Shown here: positions 2,066 through 23,652 of the stretch, piece by piece
How the letters are laid out: each line of letters opens with the position of its first letter
Position numbering within the stretch: position 1 is the first letter of the stretch
Source of the DNA: Dehalococcoidales bacterium
GTDB lineage: Bacteria; Chloroflexota; Dehalococcoidia; Dehalococcoidales; ARS1013
NCBI GenBank assembly: GCA_030672225.1
Contig: DAOVGW010000021.1
Location: 1-24,172, forward strand
DNA length: 24,172 nucleotides
Reading direction: 5' to 3'
Notes under the pieces: generated by a model
What the model was told of the DNA's origin: nothing
The model's database searches: none
Seen by the model: only the letters and a program-made list of their open reading frames with translations
Position numbers and translations under genes: made by a program

Positions 2066-2078
2066 CAAAATCATAGCT

Positions 2079-5337: not shown

Positions 5338-5812
5338 CCTCTCCTCTTATATAAATTCCGCTCTTACCACCCCTTTTACTTTCAAGATATATTTGCTCGA
5401 TAGTCATACCGCGGTCAACAGCCTTGCACATATCATAAATGGTCAGGGCACTGACTGAGGCGGCAACCAGAGCCTCCATCTCCACCCCGGTCTTACCGCT
5501 GCACTTTACTGCAGTTTTTATCTTTATGTAACTATCACCCATAAACTCAAAATCAACGGTAACATTACTAATCAGTATCGGATGGCACAGGGGGATTAGG
5601 CTAGGTGTCTGCTTGGCTGCCATAATACCAGCCACCCTGGCTACCGCCAGAACATCACCCTTCTTAAGCCCCTGCTGTTTGATTTTATCTAGAGTTTCCG
5701 GCTTCATCCTGACACCAGCCACCGCCACCGCCTCACGTACCGTGTCACCTTTCTCGGTAACATCCACCATCCGTGCCTTTCCCTTTGCGTCTACATGGGT
5801 TAACTCTGTCAT
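5318..5812 (-). CDS. moaC: Cyclic pyranopterin monophosphate synthase MoaC
   Basis: [62 protein letters not shown]. Start at ATG 5812 with RBS GAGGAGAGG. Confidence 0.96.
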
Positions 5813-5847
5813 CTCTACCCCCTCTCCTCTCATTCTAACCAAACGCC

Positions 5848-6864: not shown

Positions 6865-7836
6865 CTAAGTTACTGATTTTTCCACAACATAATCCCTGAG
6901 TTCAGTAGGCACTTTAGTCAAGTCATTGGTAACCGCCGGCACTATGAGCCTGTGCCCATTCTCCTCCATGATGAGCTGCCCCTCCGGTCCAAGCAAAAAC
7001 TGCAAAAACTCTACGGCTAGGTCAACTCGGGGAGCGTTTTTAGGGATTGTAACGGCATAGAAAATAGGCTGACCTATCTGTGTCTGGATGGAGCCAAGCT
7101 CCCTGCCAACTACCTCAACCTCGGCTTGAGCATAAAAATCGGTGTACTTGACATCTGATAAGTCAATCTGAGATGGCAGCTCAACAAATTTTAAGCCATG
7201 TTGCTCGGCAATAGAACGATAGAAAAAGGCATAGTCCAAGTCACCACTCTGAAGCGGAGCAATCAACTCGGTCTCCTTTGACCTCATATACTTACCCCCG
7301 TCAGGGCAGTCAGCCAGCAGGCTGTCATACAGACCGGGGACATCATAGTACTGCTCAGCCAGTTGCCATACCAGCAGTGTCCGGTATCCACAAGGGTCAG
7401 CATCAGGGTTGGCACGACCATATGCTACCCCTTCCCGGCTCAGTATCTGATACCAGTTATCCCCGTTTATCTCATCACTAAACTTTGACTCATCAGTATA
7501 GGCTATAACCATTTGATTGCTGACAAAGATGATGTACCAGTCAGCAAAATCGGGGAACATTAGCTGCTCAATAGCCATATAGTCTGCCGAGCCGATAATG
7601 TCAGCTTGCTTGCCCAGTTCGGTCACTTTACGTATTGTAGTACGGCTGCCGGCTGACTCCGTCTCAATCTTGATATCCGGGTGAATGTCCTCAAAGGCAT
7701 CTGCTACCGCCGCAAAGGGAACACCAAGACTACCGGCATGAAATATAGTAACCGTATCCTTAGTGCCAGTTTGGCAACTGGCCGCCATCAGCATGACCAG
7801 CAGTAAGCCAAATATAACGCCAACTAGTTTCTTCAA
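6865..7836 (-). CDS. wtpA: Tungstate/molybdate ABC transporter substrate-binding lipoprotein (WtpA-type)
   Basis: Signal peptide with lipobox MAASC; FHAGSL, SAGSRTTIRKV, SADY, DPCGYR and RSKETEL carrying the Asp/Glu ligands typical of WtpA/archaeal ModA; TTG start. Confidence 0.88.
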   Translation of the reverse strand: MKKLVGVIFGLLLVMLMAASCQTGTKDTVTIFHAGSLGVPFAAVADAFEDIHPDIKIETESAGSRTTIRKVTELGKQADIIGSADYMAIEQLMFPDFADWYIIFVSNQMVIAYTDESKFSDEINGDNWYQILSREGVAYGRANPDADPCGYRTLLVWQLAEQYYDVPGLYDSLLADCPDGGKYMRSKETELIAPLQSGDLDYAFFYRSIAEQHGLKFVELPSQIDLSDVKYTDFYAQAEVEVVGRELGSIQTQIGQPIFYAVTIPKNAPRVDLAVEFLQFLLGPEGQLIMEENGHRLIVPAVTNDLTKVPTELRDYVVEKSVT

Positions 7837-7848
7837 AAACGCCCCCTT

Positions 7849-8895
7849 TTAAAATATATGAACTGCGGATGCCTTAAACGTTATGTAAACCGTCATTCCT
7901 TCTCTCAAACTCATCTCCTCATATGAGCGGCGAGTGATAAGACAGATAAAATCCGGCGGCACACTTACCGTCAGATAGATAACTGAACCCTTATCAGCTA
8001 TATGAGTGATGGTGCCGGAAAGAGAATTGAGGGCACTGGAGGCCAGAGGCTCCTTAGAAATCAGAATGTCCTCGGGGCGAATAGTGGCATGTAGCTGACC
8101 GCGCAGGTCAGTGACTACTACCAGCTTCGTCCCGCCGACACTAAAAGTAGCCTGCCCGCTTCGGCCATCCTGGACATCGCCTTCAAAGATATTACGAGCC
8201 AGGGCAAAACGGGCGACAAACTCTGAATTTGGGCTGCGAAATATCTGCTGGGGGGTTCCCGTCTGGATTATGTGACTGTTACCTAAAACCGCAATCCGGT
8301 CGCCCAAGGCAACCGCCTCCTCAAAATCGTGGGTAACGTGTATGGTGGTTACCTTCAGTTGGTCATGCAGTTGTCTCAGCTCTCGCTGAGTCGCCTCCCT
8401 TGTCTCCGGGTCAAGGGCGCTAAGTGGTTCATCGAGGAGAAGAAGCTCCGGCTCTATGGCCAAGGCGCGAGCCAGAGCCACTTTCTGGCTTTCACCACCA
8501 CTTAAGGTAACAGGCTTCCTATTCATAAGATGAGAAATGCCAAGAAGCTCAGCCAGCCGACTGGCAGTGGCTTCTATTTCCTGCTTTGACTCATCCCTAT
8601 GCTTTAATCCGAAGCATATATTCATAGCCACTGTTAAATGGGGAAAGAGCATATGGTCCTGGTAAGCAAAACCAATGTTTCTTCTCTCCGGACCGAGTAA
8701 GGTTACATCCCGGTTATTGACCTTTATCTGGCCACTTTTTATCGGACAAAGTCCAGCAATAGCCTCTAGTAACACTGTTTTACCGGCACCGGTTGGCCCC
8801 AGGAGTATGAAATACTCACCGTCCTTGACTTCTAAGTTAATATCCTCAAGAAAGAAGCCGCCCAGAGAAAGACTTAAGTTTTTTATCTCTATCAT
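7849..8895 (-). CDS. wtpC: Tungstate/molybdate ABC transporter ATPase with C-terminal TOBE domain (WtpC-type)
   Basis: Walker A GPTGAGKT, signature LSGGE, Walker B LLLLDEP, VTHD, C-terminal SALN..SGTI Mop/TOBE motif. Start at ATG 8895 (ATGA overlap with the permease stop). Confidence 0.88.
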   Translation of the reverse strand: MIEIKNLSLSLGGFFLEDINLEVKDGEYFILLGPTGAGKTVLLEAIAGLCPIKSGQIKVNNRDVTLLGPERRNIGFAYQDHMLFPHLTVAMNICFGLKHRDESKQEIEATASRLAELLGISHLMNRKPVTLSGGESQKVALARALAIEPELLLLDEPLSALDPETREATQRELRQLHDQLKVTTIHVTHDFEEAVALGDRIAVLGNSHIIQTGTPQQIFRSPNSEFVARFALARNIFEGDVQDGRSGQATFSVGGTKLVVVTDLRGQLHATIRPEDILISKEPLASSALNSLSGTITHIADKGSVIYLTVSVPPDFICLITRRSYEEMSLREGMTVYITFKASAVHIF

Positions 8896-9695
8896 TTTGC
8901 CTCCCAGCGACGGGCAATAGCTCTCAAGGTGACAAATATGACCAGGCATACCAAGACAAGCAAAACTGCTACCGGTAGAGCATAATCCAGACCGAATGTC
9001 TCAAACCTTTCGTAAACCAGAATCGGAGCTATCATGGGATTATAGGTCAGAATAAGGACGGCGCCGAATTCACTTATACCCCTGGCCCACATCATCACCG
9101 TACCGGATAGAATGCTCCCCCGAGCCAGTGGCAGGGTTACCCGGCGAAAGGACTGCCACGGAGAGGCGCCAAGGGAACGAGCCACCTTTTCCAGTCTGAC
9201 ATCCACCTTCTTAAAGCCCTCTTTGGCTGAATTTATCAAAAAAGGAACACTTACAAAAAGCATGGCGATAACAATACCGGCAACCTCACCAACGAAATCA
9301 ATGCCTACAGCGTGAAATACCTTGCCAAAAAAGAAGTGTTGGCCAAAGACGAAGAGAAGGGCTATACCCACGGCGCTGTGGGGCACCACTATCGGCAAAT
9401 CAATGAGCCCTTCAACGAGCCGCTTACCGGGAAATTCATGGCGCGCCAGAAGATAAGCCAGAGGAATGCCCAGCAAGAAGCCAATAACAGTAGCCAGAAG
9501 GGCGGTATAAAGGGTAAGCAAGATGGAGGCGACTACTTCCCCTTCTCTAAGCGTATCAAGTAAACTAGCCGGGCTGGATGAGAACATCATCTTAAACAAT
9601 GGTACAAAGATGAACAACACAATCAATGAGCCCAATAAAATAAACACAAGCTTCATGGGACTCATACCAAGATGCATACCAGCTAAAGACCTCAT
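8892..9695 (-). CDS. wtpB: Tungstate/molybdate ABC transporter permease (WtpB/ModB-type)
   Basis: LAYLLAR.EFPGK..VE.LIDLPIVVPHSAVG, LEKVARSLGASPWQSF.RVTLPL, WARGISEFGA. Start placed at ATG 9695 (RBS GAGGTG); ATG 9656 is also possible. The ORF-track extension to 9755 runs through the terminator. Confidence 0.9.
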   Translation of the reverse strand: MRSLAGMHLGMSPMKLVFILLGSLIVLFIFVPLFKMMFSSSPASLLDTLREGEVVASILLTLYTALLATVIGFLLGIPLAYLLARHEFPGKRLVEGLIDLPIVVPHSAVGIALLFVFGQHFFFGKVFHAVGIDFVGEVAGIVIAMLFVSVPFLINSAKEGFKKVDVRLEKVARSLGASPWQSFRRVTLPLARGSILSGTVMMWARGISEFGAVLILTYNPMIAPILVYERFETFGLDYALPVAVLLVLVCLVIFVTLRAIARRWEAK

Positions 9696-9726
9696 AGGAC
9701 ACCTCGCCATGTGATAAATGCCAGAT

Positions 9727-9755
9727 AAAATAAAAGTGCCTCCAAAAGGAGGCAC
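9727..9755 (-). terminator. Intrinsic terminator of the riboswitch expression platform
   Basis: Minus strand GTGCCTCC-TTTT-GGAGGCAC perfect 8-bp stem followed by TTTTATTTT. Confidence 0.9.
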
Positions 9756-9791
9756 ACTACTGTATAGAAGGTATAAATCACCTTCTATACA

Positions 9792-9890
9792 CCCTCCTTT
9801 CCAAACACGGGCGGCGCAGAGATTTCCCTCTACACCTTAACCGGTTACCGGCCATAGGCAAAAGCCCTTAGGCACCAGCAACTCGGAGGG
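9792..9890 (-). ncRNA. Moco/Wco (molybdenum/tungsten cofactor) riboswitch aptamer, apparently the P3-less variant
   Basis: Minus strand CCCTCC-GA-GTTGCTGG-TG-CC-TAAG-GGC-TTTT-GCC-TAT-GG-CCGGTAAC-CGGTTAA-GGTGTAGAGG-GAAA-TCTCTGCGCC-GCC-CGTGTTT-GGA-AA-GGAGGG matches the CUCCGAG...CCUAAG...UAUGG...GAAA...CCCGU...UGGAAAGGAG consensus. It lies upstream of wtp/moa genes. Confidence 0.88.
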
Positions 9891-9935
9891 CTATATCAAA
9901 AAGTTAAGGTATAATAGCCTATCTGGCTAAAGCCA

Positions 9936-10918: not shown

Positions 10919-12091
10919 CTAGAGCAGTGTCGGCACATCCTTGCCTGCCTCTTCCGTCCGCTCAACCTTGCTCGCTTTCACCTTCTGTCTCTTGCTGATT
11001 TCCTTAACCAAGCTAGCCGACTTACTATAGTAGCTTCTCACTTTTTCAACATCACTGAGCTCTGACAGGACTAAGGTTATATCAAGCACACCCTTCCCCC
11101 TGGGGTAGTCCCCATTTCTGATAACAGCCTTTGGCACTATATTCTTGAGATGCTCGCCAAGTTCCTTAATGAGGCCAACATTCATCGCCCTGGCCGCCGC
11201 CGAAACTAGATACAGAGCCCGACAGGCGTCTTCGGGCTTACACCCGATCGATAGCTCGCTTATAGCCTCATCCATCGCCTGGAGACCCAGATGAGTCTGG
11301 GCACTCTTCTTCACGAAGTTATCCGTCCATCGAAAAAGTAGTGTCCTAAGTGGTAATGGTGATTTACCATAGCCAATGGCTGTCCAACCAGCCAGGGTGT
11401 TCATTATATCTCCGGCATCAAGCATTCTGGCACCGATGTGCTTCGCCTTTTTCTCCTCGCCAGCGCAGAGCAGATTATAGAAAGGTTCAACTATCAAGGA
11501 ATTGATTTTAGCTAGGTTGTTTTTCAGTGAGAAGTCCTTCCTGACATATCTTTGATTGTCAAAAAGGATGACCGCATCAGCCACTGAATAGATAGACTTG
11601 AGAAATACAGCTGTGTTATAGAGCGCCCTTTCCTCCGCCTCCTCTTCATGCTCAAAGGGAAGGGCAGCCAGGGCATAAACCGGTTTATCAAAGCGCTGCT
11701 TCAGCACCTTGGCCATGACCGGTGTTGCCCCCGAGCCGGTGCCACCAGCAGTCCCGGTCACCAGCAAGAAGGCATCCGCTTCAAAGAACCGTTTAGTGAT
11801 TCTCATGGCATCAATAACCTTATCAGCGTCTTCCTTGGCTATCTCGGCACCAGCCTCGCTTATCTTAGCCGCACCATGACCGTGAGTCCTGCCGGCACCG
11901 ATGAGTATTCTATGCTGGTATTCAGCCTTTATAGTGTATAGCTCGGCTAGGTCAGCCGAATCCGTATTGACAGCAAAGGCGTCAATAACTATCTCAATAC
12001 CACGGTGGCGGCGTGCTCTTTTATTCAGTCGGGCAAATTCATCAGCAATCCTACCACCACACTGCCCGAAACCAACGACTACTAGTTTCAT
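10919..12091 (-). CDS. CetZ-like tubulin/FtsZ-superfamily GTPase
   Basis: MKLVVVGFGQCGGRIAD, AVNT..ADL, RILIG..RTHGHGA, AGGTGSGA.PV, FDN, T7-like LDAGDIMNTL, short C-terminal tail ending VPTLL; strong RBS AAGGAGGTG. Confidence 0.85.
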   Translation of the reverse strand: MKLVVVGFGQCGGRIADEFARLNKRARRHRGIEIVIDAFAVNTDSADLAELYTIKAEYQHRILIGAGRTHGHGAAKISEAGAEIAKEDADKVIDAMRITKRFFEADAFLLVTGTAGGTGSGATPVMAKVLKQRFDKPVYALAALPFEHEEEAEERALYNTAVFLKSIYSVADAVILFDNQRYVRKDFSLKNNLAKINSLIVEPFYNLLCAGEEKKAKHIGARMLDAGDIMNTLAGWTAIGYGKSPLPLRTLLFRWTDNFVKKSAQTHLGLQAMDEAISELSIGCKPEDACRALYLVSAAARAMNVGLIKELGEHLKNIVPKAVIRNGDYPRGKGVLDITLVLSELSDVEKVRSYYSKSASLVKEISKRQKVKASKVERTEEAGKDVPTLL

Positions 12092-12216: not shown

Positions 12217-12265
12217 AGTTTGCTTTTTATTTTTGAACTGGACCCTTTGGCATAGGAGTAAGCAG

Positions 12266-12637
12266 TTGCTAACAAACTATGGCTATATCGCCTTATTGCT
12301 GGTCGTTGCTGTCTTCTTTGCCTCCTCATTAGTTCTTGTTCCTGTTCTTCTCAGGCGGTTCAAGATTGTGCCCAAAAAGCCCAACCCGGTTAAGGCCTCC
12401 ACCTTTGAATGTGGTATGGAGACCATAGGTAGGTCATGGGTTCAATTTAACTTCCGCTATTACTTTTATGCCCTCATTCTCATTGCCCTTGATGTTATGG
12501 TTGTCTTTCTCTATCCCTGGGCAGTTGACCTCCGTCAGCTGGGGGTCTTTGGTTTTACCGCAGCACTTATCTTTATTGCCATTATTGTTGTCGGCTATAT
12601 CTATGCCTGGCGGAAGGGGGTCCTGGAATGGCAGTAA
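12266..12637 (+). CDS. nuoA: Complex I-like subunit NuoA
   Basis: [43 protein letters not shown]. Start set at TTG 12266 after RBS AGGAG (ORF track starts at 12233). Confidence 0.95.
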
Positions 12638-13224
12638 GCAAAAGATACAGTTACTCTGATACCGAACTTGATAGATATGAGGGTGGGGTAATAGAGGCAC
12701 TAAAAGCAAGGAGCGGGGAGGCTATCCCTGACCCTGATGAGTGGCTGGATGAAGACTTAAGCCAAAATATATTACTCACCACCGTAGATGCCGTCTTGAA
12801 CTGGGCACGGCGGTCTGCACTCTGGCCGGTGGTCTGTTTTCCAGCCTGCTGTGCCTTTGAATTTATTGCCATCGCCGCCTCTCGTTGGGATTTTGCCCGC
12901 TTTGGTATGGAAGTCGTGCGTGCCTCACCGCGCCAGGCTGACCTGATGATTACCGCCGGCACACTTACCTGGAAGATGGCGCCCCAGGTAAAGCGAATCT
13001 ATGACCAGATGGCAGAGCCGAAGTGGGTAATAGCTATGGGGGCATGCGGCATCAGCGGCGGACTCTTTAAAGGTTCTTACTCGGTTGTGCCCGGCTATAA
13101 CCGCATAGTCCCAGTTGACGTCTATGTACCCGGCTGTCCACCGCGCCCGGAAACCCTGCTTCATGGGATAATGATGCTGCATAAAAAGATAGCCAAAAGA
13201 AGCTTGATGCAGGAAGGCAAGTAA
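12628..13224 (+). CDS. nuoB: Complex I-like subunit NuoB (N2 cluster)
   Basis: WAR..ALWP, tandem-Cys [40 protein letters not shown]. Confidence 0.97.
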
Positions 13225-13227: not shown

Positions 13228-13677
13228 ATGACAGTAGCCCTTTCTGGAAAAGAGATGGCTGGTAAATTAGAGGCGCAATTTCCGGCAAGTATTATCGAGT
13301 CCAGTCGCGCTAGTCTAATCGTCAAGAGTGAGTTTTTATTACGGATAGCCTGGTATTTTAAGGCCACGCCGGGATTTGACTTTGATTATCTTTCCAGTAT
13401 TACCGCCGTTGATTACGGCAACTACTTTGAGCTAGTCTACCACCTGGTGTCACTAGAGCATAACCACAGTCTGGTGCTAAAAACTCGGTGCTATGAGCGA
13501 GATGAGCCGGTAGTCCCATCATTAGTTAGCTTGTGGCAGGGTGCCGATTTTCAAGAGCGGGAGATTTACGACCTTATGGGAATTAGATTTGACGGTCACC
13601 CAAATATGAAGCGCATCTTTCTCTGGGACGGTTTCCAAGGGCATCCACTGCGTAAGGATTACTCTGATGGCACTTAA
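13228..13677 (+). CDS. nuoC: Complex I-like subunit NuoC
   Basis: FDYLSSITAVDY, VPSL..LWQGADFQERE.YDLMGI.FDGHPN.KRI, GHPLRKDY. Confidence 0.96.
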   Translation: MTVALSGKEMAGKLEAQFPASIIESSRASLIVKSEFLLRIAWYFKATPGFDFDYLSSITAVDYGNYFELVYHLVSLEHNHSLVLKTRCYERDEPVVPSLVSLWQGADFQEREIYDLMGIRFDGHPNMKRIFLWDGFQGHPLRKDYSDGT

Positions 13678-14770
13678 AACCGAGCACTTTGTTCTCAATC
13701 TAGGTCCGCTTCATCCCAGCACCCACGGAGTGTTTCGGCTGAGAGCCACCCTTGATGGTGAGGTCATTGTTGATATTGAGCCAGTCCTTGGCTACCTCCA
13801 CCGTGGCATTGAAAAACTGGCTGAGGGGTGTACCTACAAGCAGAATATCCCCTTTACCGATAGGCTAGACTACCTTGCCTCCATGAGCAATAATTTGCCT
13901 TATGTTATGGCAGTAGAGAAGCTAGCTGAAATAACCGTGCCCGAGCGAGCGGAGTACCTGCGGGTCATTATGGTGGAACTGCAGCGCATCGTCAGCCACC
14001 TAATAGCCGTGGGTACCTTTGTCCAGGATTTAGGCGCCATGGGGACTCCTTTACTGTACATGTTTCGGGAAAGGGAGAAGATTCTCGACCTGTTTGAGAT
14101 GGTCTGTGGCCAGCGGCTTACCTATAACTACATGCGTTTTGGCGGTGTTAGCCACGACATTCCTGATGAGTTCTTACCTGCCCTAGCTAAGTTCGTTGAC
14201 AGAATGCCCGGCTTTATTGATGAGTATGACCAGCTTCTGGCTGAGAATGAGATACTTTTGGCTCGGACTAAGGGAGTTGGCATTCTACCCAAGGATCTAG
14301 CCATAAATATCTCGGCCAGCGGTCCGGTGCTCCGTGCCAGCGGGGTTAAGTGGGATATTCGCAAGGCAGACCCCTACTCTGTATATGACCGCTTTGAGTT
14401 TGACATTCCGACCGGCAGTATCAGCGATGCCTATGACCGCTACCGCGTAAGAATTGAGGAAATGAGGCAGTGTGTGCGCATCCTAAGACAGGCCATGGAG
14501 CAATTGCCCAAGGGCAAAGTGCTAACTGAGGTGCCACTCAAGTTGCGGCCGCCAGCTGGTGAAGTCTACGCCCATATTGAAGCTCCCAAGGGCGAGCTCG
14601 GCTTTTATCTGGTGTCAGATAATTCAGATAAACCCTATCGCTTCCATATTAGGGCACCGGCCTTAATTAACCTGACGGCTCTTCGGCAGATGCTCATTGG
14701 CTGGAAACTGGCTGATGCTATAATCGTCTTTGGTAGCATTGATATCTGCCTAGGCGAGGTGGATAGATAG
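13667..14770 (+). CDS. nuoD: Complex I-like subunit NuoD
   Basis: NLGPLHPSTHGVFRL, GYLHRGIEKL, DRLDY, EAPKGELG, DICLGEVDR; no NiFe CxxC motifs. Confidence 0.97.
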   Translation: MALKTEHFVLNLGPLHPSTHGVFRLRATLDGEVIVDIEPVLGYLHRGIEKLAEGCTYKQNIPFTDRLDYLASMSNNLPYVMAVEKLAEITVPERAEYLRVIMVELQRIVSHLIAVGTFVQDLGAMGTPLLYMFREREKILDLFEMVCGQRLTYNYMRFGGVSHDIPDEFLPALAKFVDRMPGFIDEYDQLLAENEILLARTKGVGILPKDLAINISASGPVLRASGVKWDIRKADPYSVYDRFEFDIPTGSISDAYDRYRVRIEEMRQCVRILRQAMEQLPKGKVLTEVPLKLRPPAGEVYAHIEAPKGELGFYLVSDNSDKPYRFHIRAPALINLTALRQMLIGWKLADAIIVFGSIDICLGEVDR

Positions 14771-15894
14771 TGGCTATACTCAGTGCCAGCCCTAATTCAT
14801 TTAGCCAACTAGCGGTGCTTTCCTCCGACTGGCCGGGAGGCTTCTGGCTTCACTGGGTGTTCTTTACTGTCATTATACTGGCTTTTGTCTTAAATACCGC
14901 CCTTATATTTATCTGGCTTGAGCGACGAGCTCTCGGTCGTCTCCAGGTTCGCCTTGGCCCCAACCGCGTTGGACCCTTCGGTCTTCTCCAGCCAATAGCC
15001 GATGTCCTCAAGCTACTAACCAAAGAAGACATGATCCCAGCTAAAGGGGATAAACTGGTTTTTTGGCTGGCACCGCTGGTTGCCTTTGTTCCGGTGCTGA
15101 TGATTTTTGCCGTGATTCCATTTCAGAGTGGGGCGCTGCTGGCTGACCTCAATATTGGCATCCTCTATGTGGTGGCCATCAGCTCAGTGGCAGCAGTGGG
15201 GGTATTTATGGCCGGCTGGGCTTCCAATAATAAGTACTCCCTTATCGGGGCAATGCGAGATGTAGCCATGCTAATCAGCTATGAAATTCCAATAGTGCTC
15301 TCTATTGTTGGTGTCGTCTTAATTACCGGTTCTCTGTCACTGACTGAAATTGTCGGGGCACAACAGAATATCCCCTTTATTTTACTTCAGCCACTGGGGT
15401 TCCTCATCTTCTTCCTCGGCTCTCTGGCTGAGAGTAATCGTACTCCATTTGACCTGGTGGAAGCTGATTCAGAGCTTGTAGCCGGTTATCATATTGAATA
15501 CTCCGGGATGAAGTTCGCCACACTTTTCCTCGCCGAATATGCCGAGGTCATAGCTATGTCAGCGCTAATGACCACTCTTTTCCTAGGCGGCTGGCAGGGG
15601 CCTCTACTGCCGCCTATCATCTGGTTTTTGACTAAGGTATTTGCCGTTTTCTTGCTCATCGTGTGGATACGGAGCACGATACCACGCCTGAGGATAGACC
15701 AGGTAATGGCCTTTGCCTGGAAGTTCCTGCTACCTCTGGCACTAATAAATTTGCTTATCACCAGCCTGCAGATCGTATTCTGGCCCGAGGCTTCTCCCTG
15801 GCTAATAGTGTTTTTGAATTTGGTAGCAATGGCGGTTTTAGTACTTTCATGGTCAAGGTTTTTCAGGCTAGGAGGGGAAAGAATTGAGGTTTGA
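14770..15894 (+). CDS. nuoH: Complex I-like subunit NuoH
   Basis: ERR.LGRLQ.RLGPNRVGP.GLLQPIAD.LKL..KE, SNNKYSLIG..R, SYE, NRTPFDL.EA.SELV.GY..EYSG; GTG start overlapping the nuoD stop. Confidence 0.96.
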   Translation: MAILSASPNSFSQLAVLSSDWPGGFWLHWVFFTVIILAFVLNTALIFIWLERRALGRLQVRLGPNRVGPFGLLQPIADVLKLLTKEDMIPAKGDKLVFWLAPLVAFVPVLMIFAVIPFQSGALLADLNIGILYVVAISSVAAVGVFMAGWASNNKYSLIGAMRDVAMLISYEIPIVLSIVGVVLITGSLSLTEIVGAQQNIPFILLQPLGFLIFFLGSLAESNRTPFDLVEADSELVAGYHIEYSGMKFATLFLAEYAEVIAMSALMTTLFLGGWQGPLLPPIIWFLTKVFAVFLLIVWIRSTIPRLRIDQVMAFAWKFLLPLALINLLITSLQIVFWPEASPWLIVFLNLVAMAVLVLSWSRFFRLGGERIEV

Positions 15895-17779
15895 GCGCTA
15901 CGGTAATGGCATAGCCAAGGGAATGGCTTTAACCCTAAAGCACCTGTTTAGAAAGCCGATTACCACGCAATACCCAGACGAGAAACTGACTGTTTCTCGC
16001 CGAATTCGGGGTAATGTGCTTGCCTGGTCCCAGGAAAAGTGTATCGGTTGTTATACCTGTGCCCAGAGCTGCCCTCATGGCTGTATTGATATCGTGACTT
16101 CTGAGAAGGGAACTAAGGGATTGGTTCCGGCACCGTGTAGCCATACCTGCCCGGCTCATGTGGATGTACCCCGTTATATTCGCTATATTACTGAGGGCAA
16201 GCCAGATGAGGCGGTAGCCGTAATCCGGGAGAGAATTCCCTTCCCTGCGGTCTGCGGTTACATTTGCGCCCATCCCTGCGAAGCTGCCTGTAGCCGGGGG
16301 CAGATAGATGAGCCAATCGCTATCCGCATGCTCAAGCGGTTTGCCGTTGATAATGATAGCGGCCTATGGAGGAAAAGGTCAAAGATTGCTTCACCCAGCG
16401 GTAAGCAGGTGGCAGTTATTGGCTCAGGACCAGCAGGACTCACCGCCGCCTATTACCTGACTAAGCTTAGCGGTCATTCGGTAACCGTCTTTGAGGCCTT
16501 ACCTAAGCCAGGAGGTATGATGCGAGTTGGTATTCCGAGCTATCGGCTGCCCAGGGATATACTTAAAGCCGAGATTAAAGAGATAGAAAATGTTGGCGTT
16601 AAGATAAAGACAAATACCAAGGTGGATTCACCCCAAAGCCTCCTTGGGCAGGGATTTAACGCTGTTTTCGTAGCCATTGGAGCCCACCAGACTACTGGAC
16701 TAGGCGTTGCTGGTGAAGATGACCCCAAGGTATTGGGTGGTACCGACTTCTTAAGAGAGGTCAATCTAGGCAAAGAGATAAAACTCGGAAACAGGGTAGC
16801 CGTTATCGGTGGCGGTAATACTGCTATGGACTCGGCAAGAACCGCCATTCGTCTTGGGGCTAAAGAGGTAACCATCGTCTACCGGCGGACTCGGGCAGAA
16901 ATGCCGGCTAGCTCGGAAGAAATTGAGGAGGCTATTGAGGAGGGAGTAAAGTTCCTCTTTCTGGCAGCCCCGTCACAAATAACTAGTCCGGACGGGGAAC
17001 TGGAGCTAGAGTGTCTTCGCATGAAGTTAGGTGCCGAAGATTTAAGCGGTCGGCGGCGGCCTGAGCCAATTACGGGCAGTGAGTTTACCATGAGCTTGGA
17101 TAACATTATAGCCGCTATTGGTCAGCGTCCAGTGGTACCAGCTTCGTTTAATCTAGCTACTGAACGAGGCGACAAAATCCAGGTTGACCCCGATACGCTG
17201 GTCACCGACAATAAGGCGATATTTGCCGGCGGTGATGCTGTGCTCGGGCCGGCCACAGTTATTGAGGCCATTGCTGCCGGCAGACAGGCAGCCATTTCCA
17301 TAGACAAATACCTGGGCGGCAGTGGCATTATTGATGAAACACTAACGACGCCTGAGGAAATAATAGACCGCCCTGGCGGACCTAAGGAAGGATGGCGCCC
17401 CAAGATAGACGCCATCTCACATGAAAAACGGCTTTCCAGCTTTTCAGGGACAGAACTTGGCTGGAGCAAGCAGTCGGCGAGCGAAGAGACGCAGCGGTGC
17501 CTTCGTTGTGATATTACCTATGAAGTAGAGAAGTACCAACTCCGTGGTGGGCAATGCATCTATTGTGGCTTATGCGTTGAGGCCTGTCCCTTTGATGCCC
17601 TGTTTATGGGTTATAGCTATGAGCGGGCTTCGTATCGGCTCCATGAACAACTCTTAAGCAAAGAAGAGCTTCTGCTTTCGGATAAGAGGCAACCCAGCGG
17701 TTACGCCCACCCTGAAGTTGAAGAGACCTTACCTAAACAGACTTTACTGATTGACCGAAGGGAGTACTTGACAAGGTAG
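15884..17779 (+). CDS. nuoI: NuoI 2x[4Fe-4S] subunit carrying an inserted GltD/NfnB/SudA-family FAD/NAD(P)H oxidoreductase domain
   Basis: Residues 1-77 are NuoI-like (GM..TLKHLFRKPIT.QYPDE, C53-x2-C56-x2-C59-x3-C63-P). Residues ~78-545 are GltD-like (PC85xxxC89P, C124/128/132/136, GSGPAG, GGGNTAMD, YRR, FAGGD, RC539LRC542). Residues ~546-631 are the second NuoI half (C558-x2-C561-x2-C564-x3-C568-P, DALFM). The gene occupies the nuoI slot between nuoH and nuoJ. Confidence 0.93.
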   Translation: MRFERYGNGIAKGMALTLKHLFRKPITTQYPDEKLTVSRRIRGNVLAWSQEKCIGCYTCAQSCPHGCIDIVTSEKGTKGLVPAPCSHTCPAHVDVPRYIRYITEGKPDEAVAVIRERIPFPAVCGYICAHPCEAACSRGQIDEPIAIRMLKRFAVDNDSGLWRKRSKIASPSGKQVAVIGSGPAGLTAAYYLTKLSGHSVTVFEALPKPGGMMRVGIPSYRLPRDILKAEIKEIENVGVKIKTNTKVDSPQSLLGQGFNAVFVAIGAHQTTGLGVAGEDDPKVLGGTDFLREVNLGKEIKLGNRVAVIGGGNTAMDSARTAIRLGAKEVTIVYRRTRAEMPASSEEIEEAIEEGVKFLFLAAPSQITSPDGELELECLRMKLGAEDLSGRRRPEPITGSEFTMSLDNIIAAIGQRPVVPASFNLATERGDKIQVDPDTLVTDNKAIFAGGDAVLGPATVIEAIAAGRQAAISIDKYLGGSGIIDETLTTPEEIIDRPGGPKEGWRPKIDAISHEKRLSSFSGTELGWSKQSASEETQRCLRCDITYEVEKYQLRGGQCIYCGLCVEACPFDALFMGYSYERASYRLHEQLLSKEELLLSDKRQPSGYAHPEVEETLPKQTLLIDRREYLTR

Positions 17780-17783: not shown

Positions 17784-18272
17784 ATGGGATTAGAAATTGC
17801 CTTTTGGGTGCTAGCTGTAGTGGCTATAGCGGCTGCCCTAGCTGTAGTTACGCTGCGCAATGTTTTCCGGGCGGCGCTGTCACTGATTTTATGCTTCCTG
17901 GCGGTGGCTGGTATCTTTGTCACCCTCAGTGCCGACTTCCTGGCAGCGGTTCAGATTCTCATTTATGTTGGCGCCATTGCGGTACTAATTATCCTAGCTA
18001 TCATGCTGACCAGAGAGGTCGAGCGGGGCAGCCTTTCTAATAAGCTAGTGGTTCCAGTGCTTATCAGTGCTATATTGTTTTTCGGGGTAGCCACCTTTGC
18101 CATGCTCAATACATCGTGGCCTGTAGTCAGCTTGCCCCCTGCGGAGCCTACGACGGCTCTCTTGGCCAGTAAACTTTTCGGCGAAGATGGCTTTATCTTA
18201 ACGGTAGAGATTGCTGCCATTCTACTACTGGCTACCATTATAGGAGCCATCACTATAGTGAGAGAGAAATAA
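17784..18272 (+). CDS. nuoJ: Complex I-like subunit NuoJ
   Basis: NVFRAAL.LILCFL.VAGIF..L.ADFLAAVQILIYVGAI.VLI, VEIAAILLL..IIGAI. Confidence 0.95.
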   Translation: MGLEIAFWVLAVVAIAAALAVVTLRNVFRAALSLILCFLAVAGIFVTLSADFLAAVQILIYVGAIAVLIILAIMLTREVERGSLSNKLVVPVLISAILFFGVATFAMLNTSWPVVSLPPAEPTTALLASKLFGEDGFILTVEIAAILLLATIIGAITIVREK

Positions 18273-18348: not shown

Positions 18349-18660
18349 ATGTCTTTAGGTTTGGAGCATTATCTAGTTCTATCAGCCGCATTATTCTCTA
18401 TCGGCTTATACGGAGCGCTGACCAAAAGAAGCGCCGTAGTCATTCTGATGTCTATTGAGCTTATGCTCAATGCAACCAACATCGCTCTGGTCGCCTTTTC
18501 ACGATATATTGTGCCGGTGCTACTAACCGGGCAGGTTTTTACCATTTTCTCTATCGTAGTAGCAGCCGCTGAGGCTACCGTGGGCTTGGCTATTATAATG
18601 GCTATCTATCGCAGCCGTGAGACTATAGATACCACCAAAATAGACCTGATGAAATGGTAA
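18349..18660 (+). CDS. nuoK: Complex I-like subunit NuoK
   Basis: YLVLSAALFSIG, MSIELMLNA.N..LVAFS, VAAAEA.VGLAI. Confidence 0.96.
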   Translation: MSLGLEHYLVLSAALFSIGLYGALTKRSAVVILMSIELMLNATNIALVAFSRYIVPVLLTGQVFTIFSIVVAAAEATVGLAIIMAIYRSRETIDTTKIDLMKW

Positions 18661-18675: not shown

Positions 18676-20607
18676 ATGGAAACTGTAATACCAAATGAAC
18701 TGGTCTGGCTTATCTTCTTACTGCCGCTATTATCGTTTGCGGTAATTTCTTTGATTTTAAGACCATTCTTCTCAAATAAGCCCAGGCTCAGCGGTTATAT
18801 CTCCATTAGCGCCATCTTCGGCTCCTTTATCCTATCAATCTGGGCACTAACAAGTATTCTTTCGGCACCAAGTCACGAGCTAGCAATACCCGACTTTAAC
18901 TGGCTTGTTATTGATAGTGCCATTACCATTCATCTTGGGCTAATTATGGACTCACTGACAGCGGTGATGCTTATCGTCGTCACCCTTGTCAGCCTCATGA
19001 TACAGATGTACTCACAGGGCTATATGCAAGGCGACCCTAGTTACCACCGCTACTATGCCTATATGTCACTATTTACCGCCTCAATGCTGGGGCTGGTTAT
19101 GGTTGATAATCTACTCATAATGTTTGTCTTCTGGGAGCTGGTGGGCTTATGCTCCTATCTCCTTATTGGCTTCTGGTTCCATCGTCCGGCGGCAGCCAAT
19201 GCAGCCAAAAAGGCTTTTATTGTCACCCGCATCGGTGACTTTGGCTTCCTGGCGGCAATACTGCTTCTTCTTTCCAAGACGGGCACCCTTGATATTGCCC
19301 AGCTCCATAGCTTAGCCATAGCCGGAACTCTAGCCGGCACAGTCCTCACCTTGGCCGCCATAGGCATCTTTCTCGGAGCTGTAGGCAAATCAGCCCAATT
19401 TCCACTCCATGTCTGGCTGCCAGATGCCATGGAAGGTCCGACCCCGGTCAGTGCCCTGATTCATGCGGCGACTATGGTCGCCGCCGGCGTCTTTCTGGTT
19501 GCCCGAATGTTTCCCCTCTTTGAGCACTCTGAAGTCGCCTTGCTTACTGTAGCCATCATCGGGGGCTTAACCGCCATTTTTGCCGCCACTATGGGTCTGG
19601 TAATGACTGATATCAAGCGAGTCCTGGCCTATTCTACCATCAGCCAGCTTGGCTATATGATGCTGGGGCTGGGGGTTGGTGGCATAGCCATTGGTATCTT
19701 CCACCTGTTTAACCATGCCTTCTTTAAGGCGCTACTATTTCTTGGAGCCGGTAGTGTCAGTCACGCCACCGGGACATTTGATATGCGCCAGATGGGCGGA
19801 CTGCGCAAGGTGATGCCGTGGACCTATGCTACCTTTCTTATTGCCTCGCTTTCTATTGCCGGCATCTGGCCACTTGCCGGGTTCTGGAGCAAGGATGAAA
19901 TACTGCTTAGCTCAATTAATAACCAACCCATCTTGTTTTACCTAGCCATGGTCACTGTCTTTATGACCGCATTCTACATGTTCCGCGTAGTCTTTCTCAC
20001 CTTTGGTGGTCAGTATCGAGGTGACAACTCAGGCAGCCACAGCGCGAGACCCCACGAATCACCATCGGTAATGATTATGCCCATGGTGGTTCTGGCTGTT
20101 CTGGCGGTTGGCTCCGGCTGGCTTAATGTCACCGGTGGTTTTAGCCAGTTTCTGGGTGGCGGTGAAACACGTGGCTTCTTTGAAGGCCTTTTCCATGGCT
20201 TTACACATACACTACCTGGGTTACCAATTCCATTAGCCTGGATTTCACTGATATTGGCGGGACTAGGTATTCTTCTGGCCTATGCTATCTACAGCGCCAG
20301 ATGGCTGTCAGCCGAGCGAATTACCAGGCTATTTGCGCCGCTGCACATGCTATTTTCTAGGAAGTACTGGTTTGATGAGCTTTATGAGCATATCATTGCC
20401 AGGATAGTATTACTAAAAGGCCTTTTTGCCGGCCTGAAGTTCTTTGATAGCCGGGGTATTGACGGAGCGGTAAACGGGATAGCTCGCACAACAGTGGCTA
20501 CCGGCAGAGTTATCAGGAAAGCACAGACCGGGCAGCTTCAACTCTACGGTATGTTCATCATCCTGGGCGTTGTCGCCATCATACTTGCCATGTATTTATC
20601 GGGTTAA
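18676..20607 (+). CDS. nuoL: Complex I-like antiporter subunit NuoL
   Basis: YS.GYM.GD, FWELVGLCSYLLIGFW, RIGD.GF, GKSAQFPLHVWLPDAMEGPTPVSALIHAATMV, AYSTISQLGYM, HL.NHAFFKALLFL, FWSKD; 643 aa with the long C-terminal arm. Confidence 0.97.
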   Translation: METVIPNELVWLIFLLPLLSFAVISLILRPFFSNKPRLSGYISISAIFGSFILSIWALTSILSAPSHELAIPDFNWLVIDSAITIHLGLIMDSLTAVMLIVVTLVSLMIQMYSQGYMQGDPSYHRYYAYMSLFTASMLGLVMVDNLLIMFVFWELVGLCSYLLIGFWFHRPAAANAAKKAFIVTRIGDFGFLAAILLLLSKTGTLDIAQLHSLAIAGTLAGTVLTLAAIGIFLGAVGKSAQFPLHVWLPDAMEGPTPVSALIHAATMVAAGVFLVARMFPLFEHSEVALLTVAIIGGLTAIFAATMGLVMTDIKRVLAYSTISQLGYMMLGLGVGGIAIGIFHLFNHAFFKALLFLGAGSVSHATGTFDMRQMGGLRKVMPWTYATFLIASLSIAGIWPLAGFWSKDEILLSSINNQPILFYLAMVTVFMTAFYMFRVVFLTFGGQYRGDNSGSHSARPHESPSVMIMPMVVLAVLAVGSGWLNVTGGFSQFLGGGETRGFFEGLFHGFTHTLPGLPIPLAWISLILAGLGILLAYAIYSARWLSAERITRLFAPLHMLFSRKYWFDELYEHIIARIVLLKGLFAGLKFFDSRGIDGAVNGIARTTVATGRVIRKAQTGQLQLYGMFIILGVVAIILAMYLSG

Positions 20608-20615: not shown

Positions 20616-22118
20616 TTGCAGTTGGACTTTAATTATCTAACAATCATAATCTTCCTGCCACTGGCCGGGGCAGCTATTATTGCCCTGGTGCCTGGGCTTT
20701 CCTCAAGGCTCATTAGGTATGTTGCCGCCATTTTTACACTTGTCCCCCTGGCCATCTCCTTAGGACTGTTCGCCGCTTTCGACAGGTCAGCAGGGGCTGA
20801 AGTATTTCAATTTCAAGAAAAGGTCTCCTGGATTCCAGCGATTAATGCCAACTACCATTTAGGCGTTGATGGCCTGAGCCTGCCCCTAGTAGTGCTAATG
20901 GCCCTGCTTGGTTTTCTAGCGGTTCTCATTTCCTGGAAGATAAACTTAAGAGTGCGGGAGTACTTTGCCTGGCTGCTGCTGCTTGAGACAAGCATCCTCG
21001 GCGTATTCGTTTCCCTTGACCTACTACTATTCTTCATCTTCTGGGAGATAGAGATCATCCCCATGTACTTCCTAATCTCCATCTGGGGAGCCGGCCGAAA
21101 AGAATACTCAGCCATGAAGTATGTTCTCTATACTCTGTTTGGTGGTGCCCTGATACTGGCTGGCATCCTAGGTCTCTACTTCACCACCGACCCCCATAGT
21201 CTAAGTATGGTGGATATAGCCCAGACCGACCTTGCTCCACTGGTTACCAGCATCCCACTGGCGGCTATCTTCTTCCTGCTACTAGCTGGCTTTGCCGTAA
21301 AATTGCCTATCATTCCCTTGCATACCTGGCTGCCTGATGCTCATACCGATGCCCCAACGGCAGTCAGCGTGATACTGGCCGGGACACTGATTAAGATGGG
21401 TGGCTACGCTATAATTCGCATTTGCGTCACCATCTTCCCTCAGGCCACCCAGGATTATGCCCCGTTGCTCCTTACCCTGGCGGCAGTCAACGTGGTCTAT
21501 GGAGCAGCAGTAACACTAAAACAGACCGACATTAAGAGGCTGATTGCCTATAGCAGCATCAGCCATATGGGCTTTGTCCTGCTTGGCATTTTTGCCCTGA
21601 GCAAGGTAAGCCTGGTTGGTGCCGGTTTGCAGATGTTCAGCCACGGCATCATTACCGGACTCCTGTTTGCCGTCGCCGGCATAGTCATGCACAATACCAA
21701 GGAGCGCAATATCGCCAAGCTGGGTGGCCTGGCTCGACAGATGCCAGCTATAGCTGTCATATTTACCATCGCTGGACTGGGTGCTATGGGCGTGCCCTCC
21801 ACCAGCGGCTTTACCGCCGAGGTTACCATCTTTTTGGGTGCTTTCTCCAGTAACGTTGTTAGTGGGGTTCCTATCTTTACCATCATCTGCCTGCTGGGTA
21901 TTCTACTGGCGGCAGCCTACATACTGTGGCTCTTGCAGCGGGTATTCTTTGGTCCGGCGCTTGCGAAATTCAACCATGTTATAGACGCCGACCGTCTGGA
22001 GAAGATATATTGCGCTATCTTTATTGCTCTTATCTTTTTGGTTGGTCTTTACCCGATGATTTTGACCGATGTCATTAAAACCGGTATCGCTCCCATAGCC
22101 GCCCTATTTGGCGGATAA
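20616..22118 (+). CDS. nuoM: Complex I-like antiporter subunit NuoM
   Basis: YHLGVDGLS, FFIFWE, KLP.IPLHTWLPDAHTDAPT, IKMGGY, IAYSSISHMG, QMFSHG, FTAE; TTG start. Confidence 0.97.
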   Translation: MQLDFNYLTIIIFLPLAGAAIIALVPGLSSRLIRYVAAIFTLVPLAISLGLFAAFDRSAGAEVFQFQEKVSWIPAINANYHLGVDGLSLPLVVLMALLGFLAVLISWKINLRVREYFAWLLLLETSILGVFVSLDLLLFFIFWEIEIIPMYFLISIWGAGRKEYSAMKYVLYTLFGGALILAGILGLYFTTDPHSLSMVDIAQTDLAPLVTSIPLAAIFFLLLAGFAVKLPIIPLHTWLPDAHTDAPTAVSVILAGTLIKMGGYAIIRICVTIFPQATQDYAPLLLTLAAVNVVYGAAVTLKQTDIKRLIAYSSISHMGFVLLGIFALSKVSLVGAGLQMFSHGIITGLLFAVAGIVMHNTKERNIAKLGGLARQMPAIAVIFTIAGLGAMGVPSTSGFTAEVTIFLGAFSSNVVSGVPIFTIICLLGILLAAAYILWLLQRVFFGPALAKFNHVIDADRLEKIYCAIFIALIFLVGLYPMILTDVIKTGIAPIAALFGG

Positions 22119-22170: not shown

Positions 22171-23652
22171 TTGAATCTTGAGCTACTTCTGCCAGAGCTA
22201 AGCCTTCTTATTACCGCTATAGCGGTAATCATGCTTGACCTTTTTACCGAGCGCAAGGGACTGCTGGCAGTGGTCAGCATAGTTGGTTTAGCTATCGCTG
22301 CTGGCTTTGCCATAACTATGTGGGGCACGGATCCTCAGGCTATCTTCAACAATATGCTAGCGGTGGATAACTATGCCCTTTTCTTCAAGCTGTTGTTTTT
22401 AGGTATTGCCGTCCTCGTTATCCTGGTCTCGGTAGACTATGTCTCCAAGTTTGTCCACTTCCGCGGTGAATACCACGCCCTGGTACTTCTAGCCACACTA
22501 GGCATGATGCTGATGGCGGCGGCCACTGACCTAATCTCCATCTTCGTGGCTCTAGAGCTGGCTGCAATCTCCTTCTATGTTCTGGTCGGCTTTCTTAAAG
22601 ACAAAAAATCAACCGAAGCCTCTTTGAAATTCGTTTTGCTGGGGGGGATTGCCTCGGCAGTGCTGCTCTTTGGCATGGCGCTCACCTTCGGCTTTACCGG
22701 CACCACCCAACTCCCCGAAATCGCCCTGGCAGTCCATGAGATGAGTGCACAGGGGCTTCTATCTAACCCGGGCCTTATACTGGGCATAGTACTGATGATA
22801 GCCGGCTTCGGCTTTAAGATTGCCGCCGTACCCTTTCACATGTGGGCGCCCGATGTTTATGAGGGGGCACCAACGCCAATAACCCTCTATTTATCGGTGG
22901 GCAGTAAAGTCGCTGGCTTTGCCGTCATCCTGCGGGTTTTCTACTCTGCTTTCGCACTGCCAGAGACGCTGAGCCTGGATTGGGGGATGATATTTGCCAT
23001 ACTTGGCGCCATAGGTATGACACTGGGCAATGTAGTCGCCATCCAACAGGCTAACATTAAGCGTATGCTGGCTTACTCCAGCATCGCCCACGCCGGTTAT
23101 ATAATGATAGGACTGGCCGCCATCGGGCTATCCATCGGGCTATCACCAACTACGGATACTCTAGCCCCTCTAGCCCAGAGCAGTATTCTCTTCTATGTAG
23201 TTGCCTTTGCCCTGGCTGACCTAGCCGCTTTTATCTCGGTTATCGTTATTTCGGGTAAGCTCGGTAGTGACCAAATTTCGGACTATGCCGGCATGGGAAA
23301 GCAGGCTCCACTAGTGGCTTTAGCCCTGACCCTGGGGCTTATCTCCCTTATCGGGCTGCCACCAACCGCCGGCTTTATAGCCAAGTTCTACATCTTCAGC
23401 GATGCAGTTAACAACGGCCTATTATGGCTGGTGATTATCGCTGTCCTAAATAGCGCCATATCAGCCTACTACTATCTCAGGGTGGTAAAAGTAATGTGGC
23501 TTAATGAGCCAGCTCGTGAGGGGAAGGTGCCTTCCTCTCTAGCTCTTCGGCTGGCTCTGGCTATTTCCTGCCTCGGCATCCTGCTTTTGGGCATTGTCCC
23601 CACCATTGTAATGAAGCTTGCCGAAATGGCAACCAGTATGTTCGGCTTTTAG
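22171..23652 (+). CDS. nuoN: Complex I-like antiporter subunit NuoN
   Basis: FVALEL, EASLKF, FKIAAVPFHMWAPDVYEGAPTP, KVAGFA, NIKRMLAYSSIAHAGY, GLPPTAGFIAKF, YYYLRV; TTG start after RBS AAGGAG. Confidence 0.97.
   Translation: MNLELLLPELSLLITAIAVIMLDLFTERKGLLAVVSIVGLAIAAGFAITMWGTDPQAIFNNMLAVDNYALFFKLLFLGIAVLVILVSVDYVSKFVHFRGEYHALVLLATLGMMLMAAATDLISIFVALELAAISFYVLVGFLKDKKSTEASLKFVLLGGIASAVLLFGMALTFGFTGTTQLPEIALAVHEMSAQGLLSNPGLILGIVLMIAGFGFKIAAVPFHMWAPDVYEGAPTPITLYLSVGSKVAGFAVILRVFYSAFALPETLSLDWGMIFAILGAIGMTLGNVVAIQQANIKRMLAYSSIAHAGYIMIGLAAIGLSIGLSPTTDTLAPLAQSSILFYVVAFALADLAAFISVIVISGKLGSDQISDYAGMGKQAPLVALALTLGLISLIGLPPTAGFIAKFYIFSDAVNNGLLWLVIIAVLNSAISAYYYLRVVKVMWLNEPAREGKVPSSLALRLALAISCLGILLLGIVPTIVMKLAEMATSMFGF

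Follow-up and report, generated by a model that had tools for sequence, protein, structure and literature searches.

The window analyzed here is a 24,172-nucleotide contig of a Dehalococcoidales bacterium (GTDB lineage Bacteria; Chloroflexota; Dehalococcoidia; Dehalococcoidales; ARS1013; contig DAOVGW010000021.1 of assembly GCA_030672225.1). It carries a complex I (nuo) operon in which the gene for the ferredoxin subunit NuoI (15884-17779, + strand) encodes 631 residues, and a cassette of about 469 residues, resembling flavoproteins that contain flavin adenine dinucleotide (FAD) and iron-sulfur (Fe-S) clusters and use NADPH, is nested inside the NuoI sequence. This nested nuoI::NfnL/GltD-type fusion was recognized by Pfam, NCBIfam and PDB matches, an AlphaFold2 (AF2) model and structural superposition. 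The data below support the architecture of the protein and how well it is conserved, the context of the operon, the fold, the motifs of the quinone (Q) module, a presence/absence polymorphism of the cassette and the predicted NuoI-NuoB interface. By analogy with enzymes that contain the same cassette, we consider it probable that electrons flow forward from NADPH to quinone through the fused NuoI, with ion pumping.

The fusion is encoded by a single uninterrupted frame; its TTG start lies within the last bases of nuoH, and homologues of the same length share this start position. Two ferredoxin motifs (CxxCxxCxxxC), C53/56/59/63 and C558/561/564/568, lie about 469 residues apart. Between them are the Rossmann motifs GSGPAG (180-185) and GGGNTA (309-314), YRR (333-335) and FAGGD (about 447-451). 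Conservation was assessed with 80 homologues of 60-92% identity; all cysteines of the ferredoxin motifs, both Rossmann motifs, YRR and the GGD of FAGGD were invariant among them. A first-pass annotation, made from the sequence alone, had described a 631-residue NuoI with these features. Every one of them was present, and the domain scan agreed: Pfam placed the Fe-S subdomain Fer4_20 (PF14691, E 3.2e-19) at residues 83-157 (16130-16354) and the FAD and NADPH Rossmann domains, Pyr_redox_2 (PF07992, E 5.5e-32), at residues 175-466 (16406-17281), both above cut-off, with a single Fer4 match at either end.

The NuoI part of the protein was found in two pieces. NCBIfam NuoI models (TIGR01971, NF00453x) gave two separate matches, 11-75 and 543-601, and the solved Nqo9/TYKY chains in PDB matched the same two stretches, 9-78 and 541-602. 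The scores of the NuoI models stayed under the whole-protein cut-offs, because the match is split. These matches define an N-terminal half (residues 1-73; 15884-16102) with TTQYPDEK and C53-C63, and a C-terminal half (residues 543-631; 17510-17779) with the return strand, C558-C568 and the C-terminal extension. In a multiple alignment, the hairpin turn of 3-6 residues that follows "VTS" in canonical NuoI was replaced by the insert, which extends from about residue 74 to 542 (about 16103-17509). The boundaries of 16115-17518 given by the first-pass annotation were shifted by the alignment. When residues 81-542 were deleted in silico, the remaining 169 residues aligned end to end, with 57% identity over 164 columns, with the canonical 181-residue NuoI of an orthologous nuo operon (genome G471), as expected if removal of the insert leaves a normal NuoI. 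Identity of the insert-free fusion to other canonical NuoI of the order was 44-66%, and the alignments were collinear. The NuoI-specific N-terminal segment and C-terminal extension were both retained. The fusion differed in size, with 631 residues against 159-183 for NuoI in related operons, and in lacking the short hairpin between the motifs. The host of the fusion is a member of the NuoI family in each tested respect but size. The AF2 model, built with the 80 homologues, had a mean predicted local distance difference test (pLDDT) of 87.9 and a predicted template modeling score (pTM) of 0.84. In this model, long strands at residues 68-78 and 544-554 form a two-stranded ribbon that joins the NuoI core to the insert.

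The window belongs to a fragmented metagenome-assembled genome (MAG; G000) of 561 kb in 64 contigs, scored 70% complete, and relatives have 0.9-1.9 Mb; the alternatives are a very small genome or an overly generous completeness score. Fragmentation of this degree favors a trivial explanation, an assembly or binning artefact in which a chimeric contig joins nuoI to a GltD-like gene. This explanation is already refuted. Besides the uninterrupted frame, more than 100 protein clusters of 614-648 residues in NCBI, ENA, JGI and Logan matched the fusion at 60-92% identity over 97-100% of its length; those with names come from Dehalococcoidales, Dehalococcoidia or Chloroflexota and are called "FAD-dependent oxidoreductase" or "formate dehydrogenase beta subunit". 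Two relatives, G008 (100% complete; 67% identity) and G123 (65%), have the fusion in the same nuoABCDH-X-JKLMN slot, and it was present in closed or near-closed genomes. A Logan contig from the probable source run covered 15700-17612 with one difference, and contigs from two unrelated studies of marine metagenomes spanned each junction with at least 31 bases on either side. The junctions are thus crossed by contigs of three studies, as the first-pass annotation required of a genuine gene. The samples originated from marine sediments and cold seeps.

The insert had been called a complete GltD-family enzyme. By sequence and fold it is a complete module of NADPH/FAD/Fe-S type whose nearest relatives are the NfnL-like cassettes of StnC and NfnA, and not GltD proper. 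Among solved structures, the best sequence matches were NfnA of Caldicellulosiruptor NfnABC (9bov_A, E 2e-124), NfnA of Thermococcus sibiricus (9n5u_A) and StnC of Sporomusa ovata (8oh5_C), followed by NfnL/NfnB, GltD and dihydropyrimidine dehydrogenase. Superposition of model residues 79-545 on residues 98-568 of StnC (8oh5_C) gave a Z score of 47.6, a root-mean-square deviation (rmsd) of 1.8 Å and 46% identity, and Foldseek was concordant. Overall, the NfnA/StnC matches had Z scores of 46-48, 46-47% identity and rmsd of 1.8-2.6 Å. The cassette of StnC and NfnA is likewise nested, at identical boundaries, within a host Fe-S protein. Judged from its sequence, the insert is an NfnL/GltD-type module of the StnC/NfnA subtype, less close to GltD proper.

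Of eight further cluster-type cysteines noticed at first in the insert, seven (85, 89, 128, 132, 136, 539 and 542) were invariant. C124 was variable, and the aligned position in NfnA is Ile. C539 and C542 belong to an RCLRC tail (17498-17509), which aligned with 9bov_A and 9n5u_A; both cysteines fall in columns that are invariant among the 80 homologues. This RCLxC cysteine pair follows the flavin domains in the insert, NfnA and StnC; in GltD and NfnL it is found at the N-terminus, before PCxxxCP. Because NfnA and StnC have the same placement, the permuted order of cysteines is, by alignment, a trait of the StnC/NfnA cassette subtype and not a peculiarity of NuoI. The FAD-proximal cluster A7 of NfnA has three cysteines and a lysine as its ligands (PMC12018979). 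K151 of the fusion, invariant in the 80 homologues, is the only conserved lysine in the segment where A7 uses a lysine, so it is probably the fourth ligand of the FAD-proximal cluster, as in NfnA/StnC; equating it with Tsi K165 presupposes an inferred numbering offset of 8 residues. The predicted clusters are C128/C132/C136/K151 adjacent to FAD, with K151 as a probable ligand, and C85/C89/C539/C542, which is placed at the junction because its ligands come from both ends of the insert. In NfnA, electrons pass from NADPH through FAD, A7 and A6 to the host cluster A3, all inside electron-transfer range, and the solved relatives of NfnA/StnC type use NADPH (PMC12018979).

The remaining genes of the operon were those of a Nuo-type complex I in the order nuoABCDH-I-JKLMN, all on the + strand: nuoA (12233-12637; NCBIfam NuoA models, E 5.8e-29), nuoB for the subunit of cluster N2 (12628-13224; NCBIfam NuoB), nuoC (13228-13677; TIGR01961), nuoD (13667-14770; NF008974 and TIGR01962), nuoH (14770-15894; NF004741), nuoJ (17784-18272; NCBIfam NuoJ models), nuoK (18349-18660; NF004322), nuoL (18676-20607; NF005141), nuoM (20616-22118; TIGR01972) and nuoN (22171-23652; TIGR01770). 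All of these except nuoA and nuoJ, which were assigned by family models, scored above the model cut-off. In the window nuoH directly follows nuoD, and there is no nuoEFG. The N2 ligand motifs of NuoB (tandem CC, GACG and GCPP) were all read in its translation. NuoD has HPSTHG and DRLDY, with the quinone-site His and Tyr, and the NiFe cysteine pairs are absent. By these motifs, the Q-module is canonical. In a complex prediction, fused NuoI and NuoB scored 0.64, and the highest-scoring of 3 controls 0.00; the mark of the pair is attained by 55 of 80 solved complexes and by 3 of 110 mismatched pairs. The predicted interface consisted of residues 26-44, 65, 554-560 and 579-589 of the NuoI core and the N2-ligand region of NuoB, and included zero insert residues. 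No second NuoI was found in the 70% complete MAG of the window, and in the complete relative G008 the fused copy ranked first among three NuoI-family matches.

The distribution of the fusion was then compared among genomes. Among 401 sampled genomes of the phylum, only those of the window's order gave full-length matches. Within 201 genomes of this order, a split NuoI match in frames of 594-661 residues was found in at least 30 genomes from at least a dozen GTDB families, and six further truncated frames look like fused NuoI. Many genomes of the order, including the Dehalococcoides/Dehalogenimonas-like family, have a NuoI of 160-215 residues. A search of genome contigs for the motif GGGNTAMD returned, among the matches listed, GltD-type proteins only and no fused NuoI. 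When 26 operons were compared, one gene order was kept throughout and NuoI had either 625-645 or 159-183 residues. The fused gene occupied the slot between nuoH and nuoJ in 14 of the 14 fused operons examined.

In a tree of concatenated NuoB, C, D, H, J and K, fused and plain NuoI were interleaved. Well-supported branches forced at least three changes of state, parsimony counted six, and with midpoint rooting the deepest branches carried the fused state. One pair of sister species in a single genus differed in the state of NuoI: G468 has a fused NuoI (640 residues; G468:C46) and G441 a plain one (178 residues; G441:C2). Their Nuo subunits are 86-92% identical, the NuoI segments that border the insertion point share 83-85% identity on either side, and the insert is all that separates the two operons. 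The insert is an optional plug-in that was cleanly gained or lost among close relatives. The pattern fits one gain with repeated clean losses, or repeated recombination exchange between related strains. The claim that the insert is the complex's own replacement for NuoEFG was thus only partly borne out: the operon has no nuoEFG, but the insert is optional and not an obligatory replacement, because sister species with near-identical operons are without it, and NuoE-like and NuoF-like genes are present on another contig.

This other contig (C26) has the MAG's sole NuoF-like gene, a fusion of 1014 residues that also carries the cassette, in a copy 65% identical to the NuoI insert. The gene lies in a row at about C26:3164-8800, which consists of a NuoE-like gene (166 residues), the 1014-residue NuoF::GltD with a flavin mononucleotide (FMN)/NADH module and an NADPH cassette, and an FdhA/NuoG-like molybdoenzyme. 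From its gene content, the row probably encodes a soluble formate-dehydrogenase-type complex with two pyridine-nucleotide sites. A detached NuoEFG on C26 was considered as a partner of complex I and rejected as likely, because these genes, with a NuoF that carries its own GltD cassette beside NuoE-like and FdhA-like proteins, resemble such a soluble complex.

In a tree of the modules, the NuoI inserts adjoined NuoF::GltD cassettes of the same class, and the copy in the window's own genome was 0.28 substitutions per site away. The inserts were far from stand-alone proteins of about 600 residues and from ordinary GltD/NfnB. A single origin of all NuoI inserts was neither shown nor rejected (approximately unbiased test, p 0.38). 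In the same class, the cassette was also fused to N-terminal domains of NuoG (729-763 residues) and nested in an FdhA-like protein. In the MAG of Dehalococcoidia bacterium B1Sed10_135 (L024; PUON01000028.1, about 700-6500), it lies between NuoB-like and NuoD-like genes, with a NuoL-like gene adjacent; judged from these genes, the locus encodes a membrane complex of Ech/Mbh type that has an NADPH module of its own. We read these occurrences as one promiscuous plug-in cassette. To a broader proposal we give about an even chance: the donor specificity of complex I would be switched by one movable NADPH/FAD/Fe-S cassette of about 470 residues with adjoining ends, able to enter or leave the tip of the NuoI hairpin; there it would turn a headless 11-subunit pump into a single-wire, NADPH-specific, ion-pumping NADPH:menaquinone oxidoreductase. 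In the same class, NuoF, NuoG-like, FdhA-like and Ech-type subunits carry the cassette too. This would be a general way for anaerobes to rewire membrane energy converters and, for one lineage, a concrete answer to the question of what feeds 11-subunit complex I.

The stand-alone proteins have about 590-600 residues, with a ferredoxin motif before and after a GltD-type module, and no nuo context. Compared with residues ~20-580 of the fusion, they show 40-44% identity. They were found at L018:7849-9651 (G033), L019:7574-9352 (G057), L026, L033, L035, L049 and L067, in Dehalococcoides/Dehalogenimonas-like genomes and several other phyla; the one of G057 adjoins ApbE and an FMN-binding Fe-S protein. 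An origin of the fusion from these proteins was rejected, as they are distant on the module tree and their ends are far less like the flanks of the fusion than canonical NuoI is. Their existence outside a nuo context, with ferredoxin motifs that flank a like module, lends some support to the idea that the fused protein resembles them and is an oxidoreductase, soluble or moonlighting, that has ceased to assemble into complex I. We regard this as very improbable. The fusion has kept the NuoI-specific ends, and its flanks are 57% identical to orthologous canonical NuoI and 83-85% between sister species. It stays in the nuoH-nuoJ slot in every fused operon examined, and no other NuoI was found in its MAG, while in G008 the fused copy is the best NuoI match. 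A canonical NuoB interface was predicted, and the module tree places the stand-alone proteins far from the NuoI inserts.

For forward electron flow from NADPH to quinone, we propose the following route. NADPH would deliver a hydride to the FAD of the cassette. Single electrons would then pass from FAD to cluster C128/C132/C136/K151 and to cluster C85/C89/C539/C542, from there to the two clusters of NuoI (N6a/N6b) and to N2 in NuoB, and finally to a menaquinone-type acceptor at the NuoD/NuoH site. Quinone reduction would drive ion pumping by NuoL, NuoM and NuoN. Such an enzyme would be a complex I specific for NADPH, with its input module inside NuoI and not in NuoEFG. In this route, cofactor binding, the hand-off to N6a/N6b, the acceptor and the direction are what we infer.

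On the quinone side, a MenG/UbiE gene scoring above the curated cut-off directly follows a MenA-like prenyltransferase gene, both in the MAG of the window (C57:2906-4521) and in G008 (C2:99864-101426). The two genes suggest that only the last two steps of menaquinone synthesis are present, with the head group possibly salvaged. NrfD/PsrC-type membrane subunits were found in the relatives G008, G437 and G471, and cytochrome bd was looked for and not found. The simplest reading would be a menaquinone-type pool built from a salvaged head group and re-oxidized by molybdoenzyme-type reductases.

The same chain of cofactors might run mainly in reverse, so that menaquinol, for example from hydrogenases or formate dehydrogenases, is oxidized and the ion gradient drives reduction of NADP+ for biosynthesis, a form of reverse electron transport in which the NADP+ reductase is built in. 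Complex I and NfnL/GltD-type modules are both reversible in principle, the hosts are energy-limited sediment anaerobes, and their relatives have NrfD-type and other quinone-linked enzymes. The relatives of the cassette, Nfn and Stn, physiologically produce NADPH (PMC12018979). However, the direction is not fixed by any sequence feature, uphill transfer from menaquinol to NADP+ costs about what pumping in the forward direction yields, and NADPH can also be made by ferredoxin-dependent routes. We therefore consider mainly reverse operation unlikely.

The cassette could also be an exit instead of an entrance. Electrons would pass from reduced ferredoxin, a donor to NuoI already proposed for other 11-subunit enzymes, through NuoI to NADP+ and bypass quinone, and the complex would be a membrane-anchored, possibly ion-translocating ferredoxin:NADP+ oxidoreductase. 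Such a function was proposed for mbx-like operons of Thermotoga and proteobacteria (Degli Esposti 2015, PMC4758237). In favor of it, the sister operons with plain NuoI imply that there is a separate default donor, searches for early menaquinone genes found none in the genomes covered, and the cassette is also inside the Ech/Mbh-like operon of the Dehalococcoidia MAG. Against this, the operon is a full one of Nuo type, including NuoA, H, J, K, L, M and N, and its canonical N2 and the Q-site His and Tyr would serve no purpose if quinone chemistry were absent. Complex I is known to couple at the reduction of quinone, and the MenG and MenA-like genes and the NrfD-type subunits favor a quinone pool. 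We judge this bypass to be quite unlikely.

Several observations weigh against forward NADPH:quinone electron flow as we propose it. MenB and MqnA/D were not found in the MAG of the window (70% complete), G008 (100%), G123 (97%) and two Dehalococcoides/Dehalogenimonas-like genomes, so de novo synthesis of menaquinone is unaccounted for, and the MenA-like gene scores below its family cut-off. The plain-NuoI sisters indicate that the core complex works without the insert; because these species do without it, another donor, for example ferredoxin, must exist, and it may stay the main one. The ribbon that connects the two modules, with about 11 residues per strand, could keep them apart. The predicted preference for NADPH over NADH is read from homology and the YRR motif only. 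Since structures of complex I are known, the NuoI-NuoB prediction indicates likeness to the canonical interface and is no independent proof; it may have been learned from solved complexes. A 178-nucleotide contig with 2 differences covered 15885-16062 in a run labeled as metatranscriptomic (X20); this is a mere hint of expression, as carry-over of DNA is possible, and transcription is not shown by it.

The other genes of the window lie outside the nuo operon. At 10919-12091 (- strand) is a gene for a 390-residue protein of the tubulin superfamily with a CetZ C-terminal domain (Pfam Tubulin and CetZ_C), unusual in bacteria; a tubulin/CetZ-type gene is also found upstream of the nuo operon in G008 (L017). 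A riboswitch for molybdenum cofactor (Moco) or tungsten cofactor (Rfam RF01055, 75 bits) at 9778-9900 (- strand) lies upstream of an ATP-binding cassette (ABC) transporter at 6865-9755 (- strand), which consists of a permease, an ATPase with a TOBE domain and a binding protein and probably takes up molybdate or tungstate. Adjoining this transporter, at 3189-6831, are moaA, moaC, a MOSC-domain gene, moeA and moaB/mogA-type genes. At 18-2065 (- strand) are genes for RtcB RNA ligase (485 residues) and archease (139 residues), with a tRNA gene at 1994-2065 just upstream.

When compared with known systems, the fused protein shares with NuoI/Nqo9/TYKY (NDUFS8; N6a and N6b) the cysteine motifs, the ends and the nuoH-nuoJ slot, and its predicted NuoB contact lies around the N2 ligands. 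It differs in the flavoprotein cassette of about 469 residues in the hairpin, and there is no NuoG to deliver electrons. With StnC of StnABC (8oh5) and NfnA of NfnABC/Nfn-Bfu (9bov, 9n5u/9n5v), it shares the cassette boundaries, ends that lie together, and RCLxC after the flavin domains. In those enzymes, the cassette takes electrons from NADPH and passes them to a series of clusters in the host (PMC12018979). Their host is a NuoG/Fdh-like soluble subunit, whereas the host here is the NuoI of a predicted membrane proton pump. Unlike in the Bfu/StnABC transhydrogenases, no BfuB (NuoF-like) or BfuC (NuoE-like) was found in the window, and no bifurcation site is evident because such a core is not adjacent. 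NfnB/NfnL of NfnSL, GltD, SudA and the N-terminal half of dihydropyrimidine dehydrogenase share Fer4_20, two Rossmann domains, FAD, NADPH and two [4Fe-4S] clusters with the insert (Z 33-38), but they are free-standing and have the first cysteine pair at the N-terminus, in non-permuted order. The FAD of NfnL is a bifurcation site with two exit paths, whereas the fused NuoI shows only one path.

The NuoE/F/G input module of 14-subunit complex I was missing here, in a MAG scored 70% complete. The operon is of the 11-subunit type, with nuoABCDHIJKLMN, a quinone-type NuoD, an N2-type NuoB and no NiFe ligands. The 11-subunit complex I of Dehalococcoides, Desulfitobacterium, Bacillus and others and cyanobacterial NDH-1 also have nuoABCDHIJKLMN without nuoEFG. 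The donor of 11-subunit complex I is either unknown or ferredoxin (PMC3144371, PMC11238625, PMC4959651); the question has been open since at least 2011 (PMC3144371), still was in 2024 (PMC11238625), and was raised for Dehalococcoidia (PMC4959651). In contrast to those complexes, a predicted donor site is encoded inside the complex here. With this site as part of the complex, the donor question for headless complex I becomes testable in one lineage, and the near-identical operon pairs with and without the cassette are ready-made natural controls. If our proposal is true, no complex I before this one would have been shown to use NADPH by way of a flavin site other than NuoF. The NADPH pool of anabolism would then be linked directly to the membrane potential in Chloroflexota that are abundant in marine sediments.

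The nearest idea that we found in print concerns operons of mbx-like type in Thermotoga and proteobacteria, where a flavoprotein related to GltD "substitutes" NuoI and transfer from ferredoxin to NADP+ was proposed (PMC4758237). A GltD-type NAD(P)H flavoprotein at a NuoI-like position is common to both cases. The Mrp-type gene set and the vestigial NiFe cysteines of NuoD were absent here; the operon is of Nuo type and NuoI is retained, with the module nested in it (the Thermotoga protein was compared by its description). Papers on Dehalococcoidia and other anaerobes describe 11-subunit Nuo lacking NuoEFG and mention no fused NuoI (PMC5736913, PMC4959651, 10.1101/197269, PMC12724263, PMC3144371, PMC11238625). 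No published NuoI-GltD or NuoI-Nfn fusion was found in the full-text literature, with most subscription journals outside its coverage, which agrees with the earlier statement that no characterized complex I of this architecture is known. Relative to these systems, the new elements are the interleaved fused and plain states, the near-identical pair with and without the insert, the kinship with NuoF::GltD, and the hint of a menaquinone pool from the MenA-like and MenG genes and the NrfD-type subunits, in genomes where early menaquinone genes were looked for and not found. The pairs show that a large redox module can nest in a tiny ferredoxin subunit and leave it undisturbed, which is useful for the understanding and the engineering of modular electron transfer.

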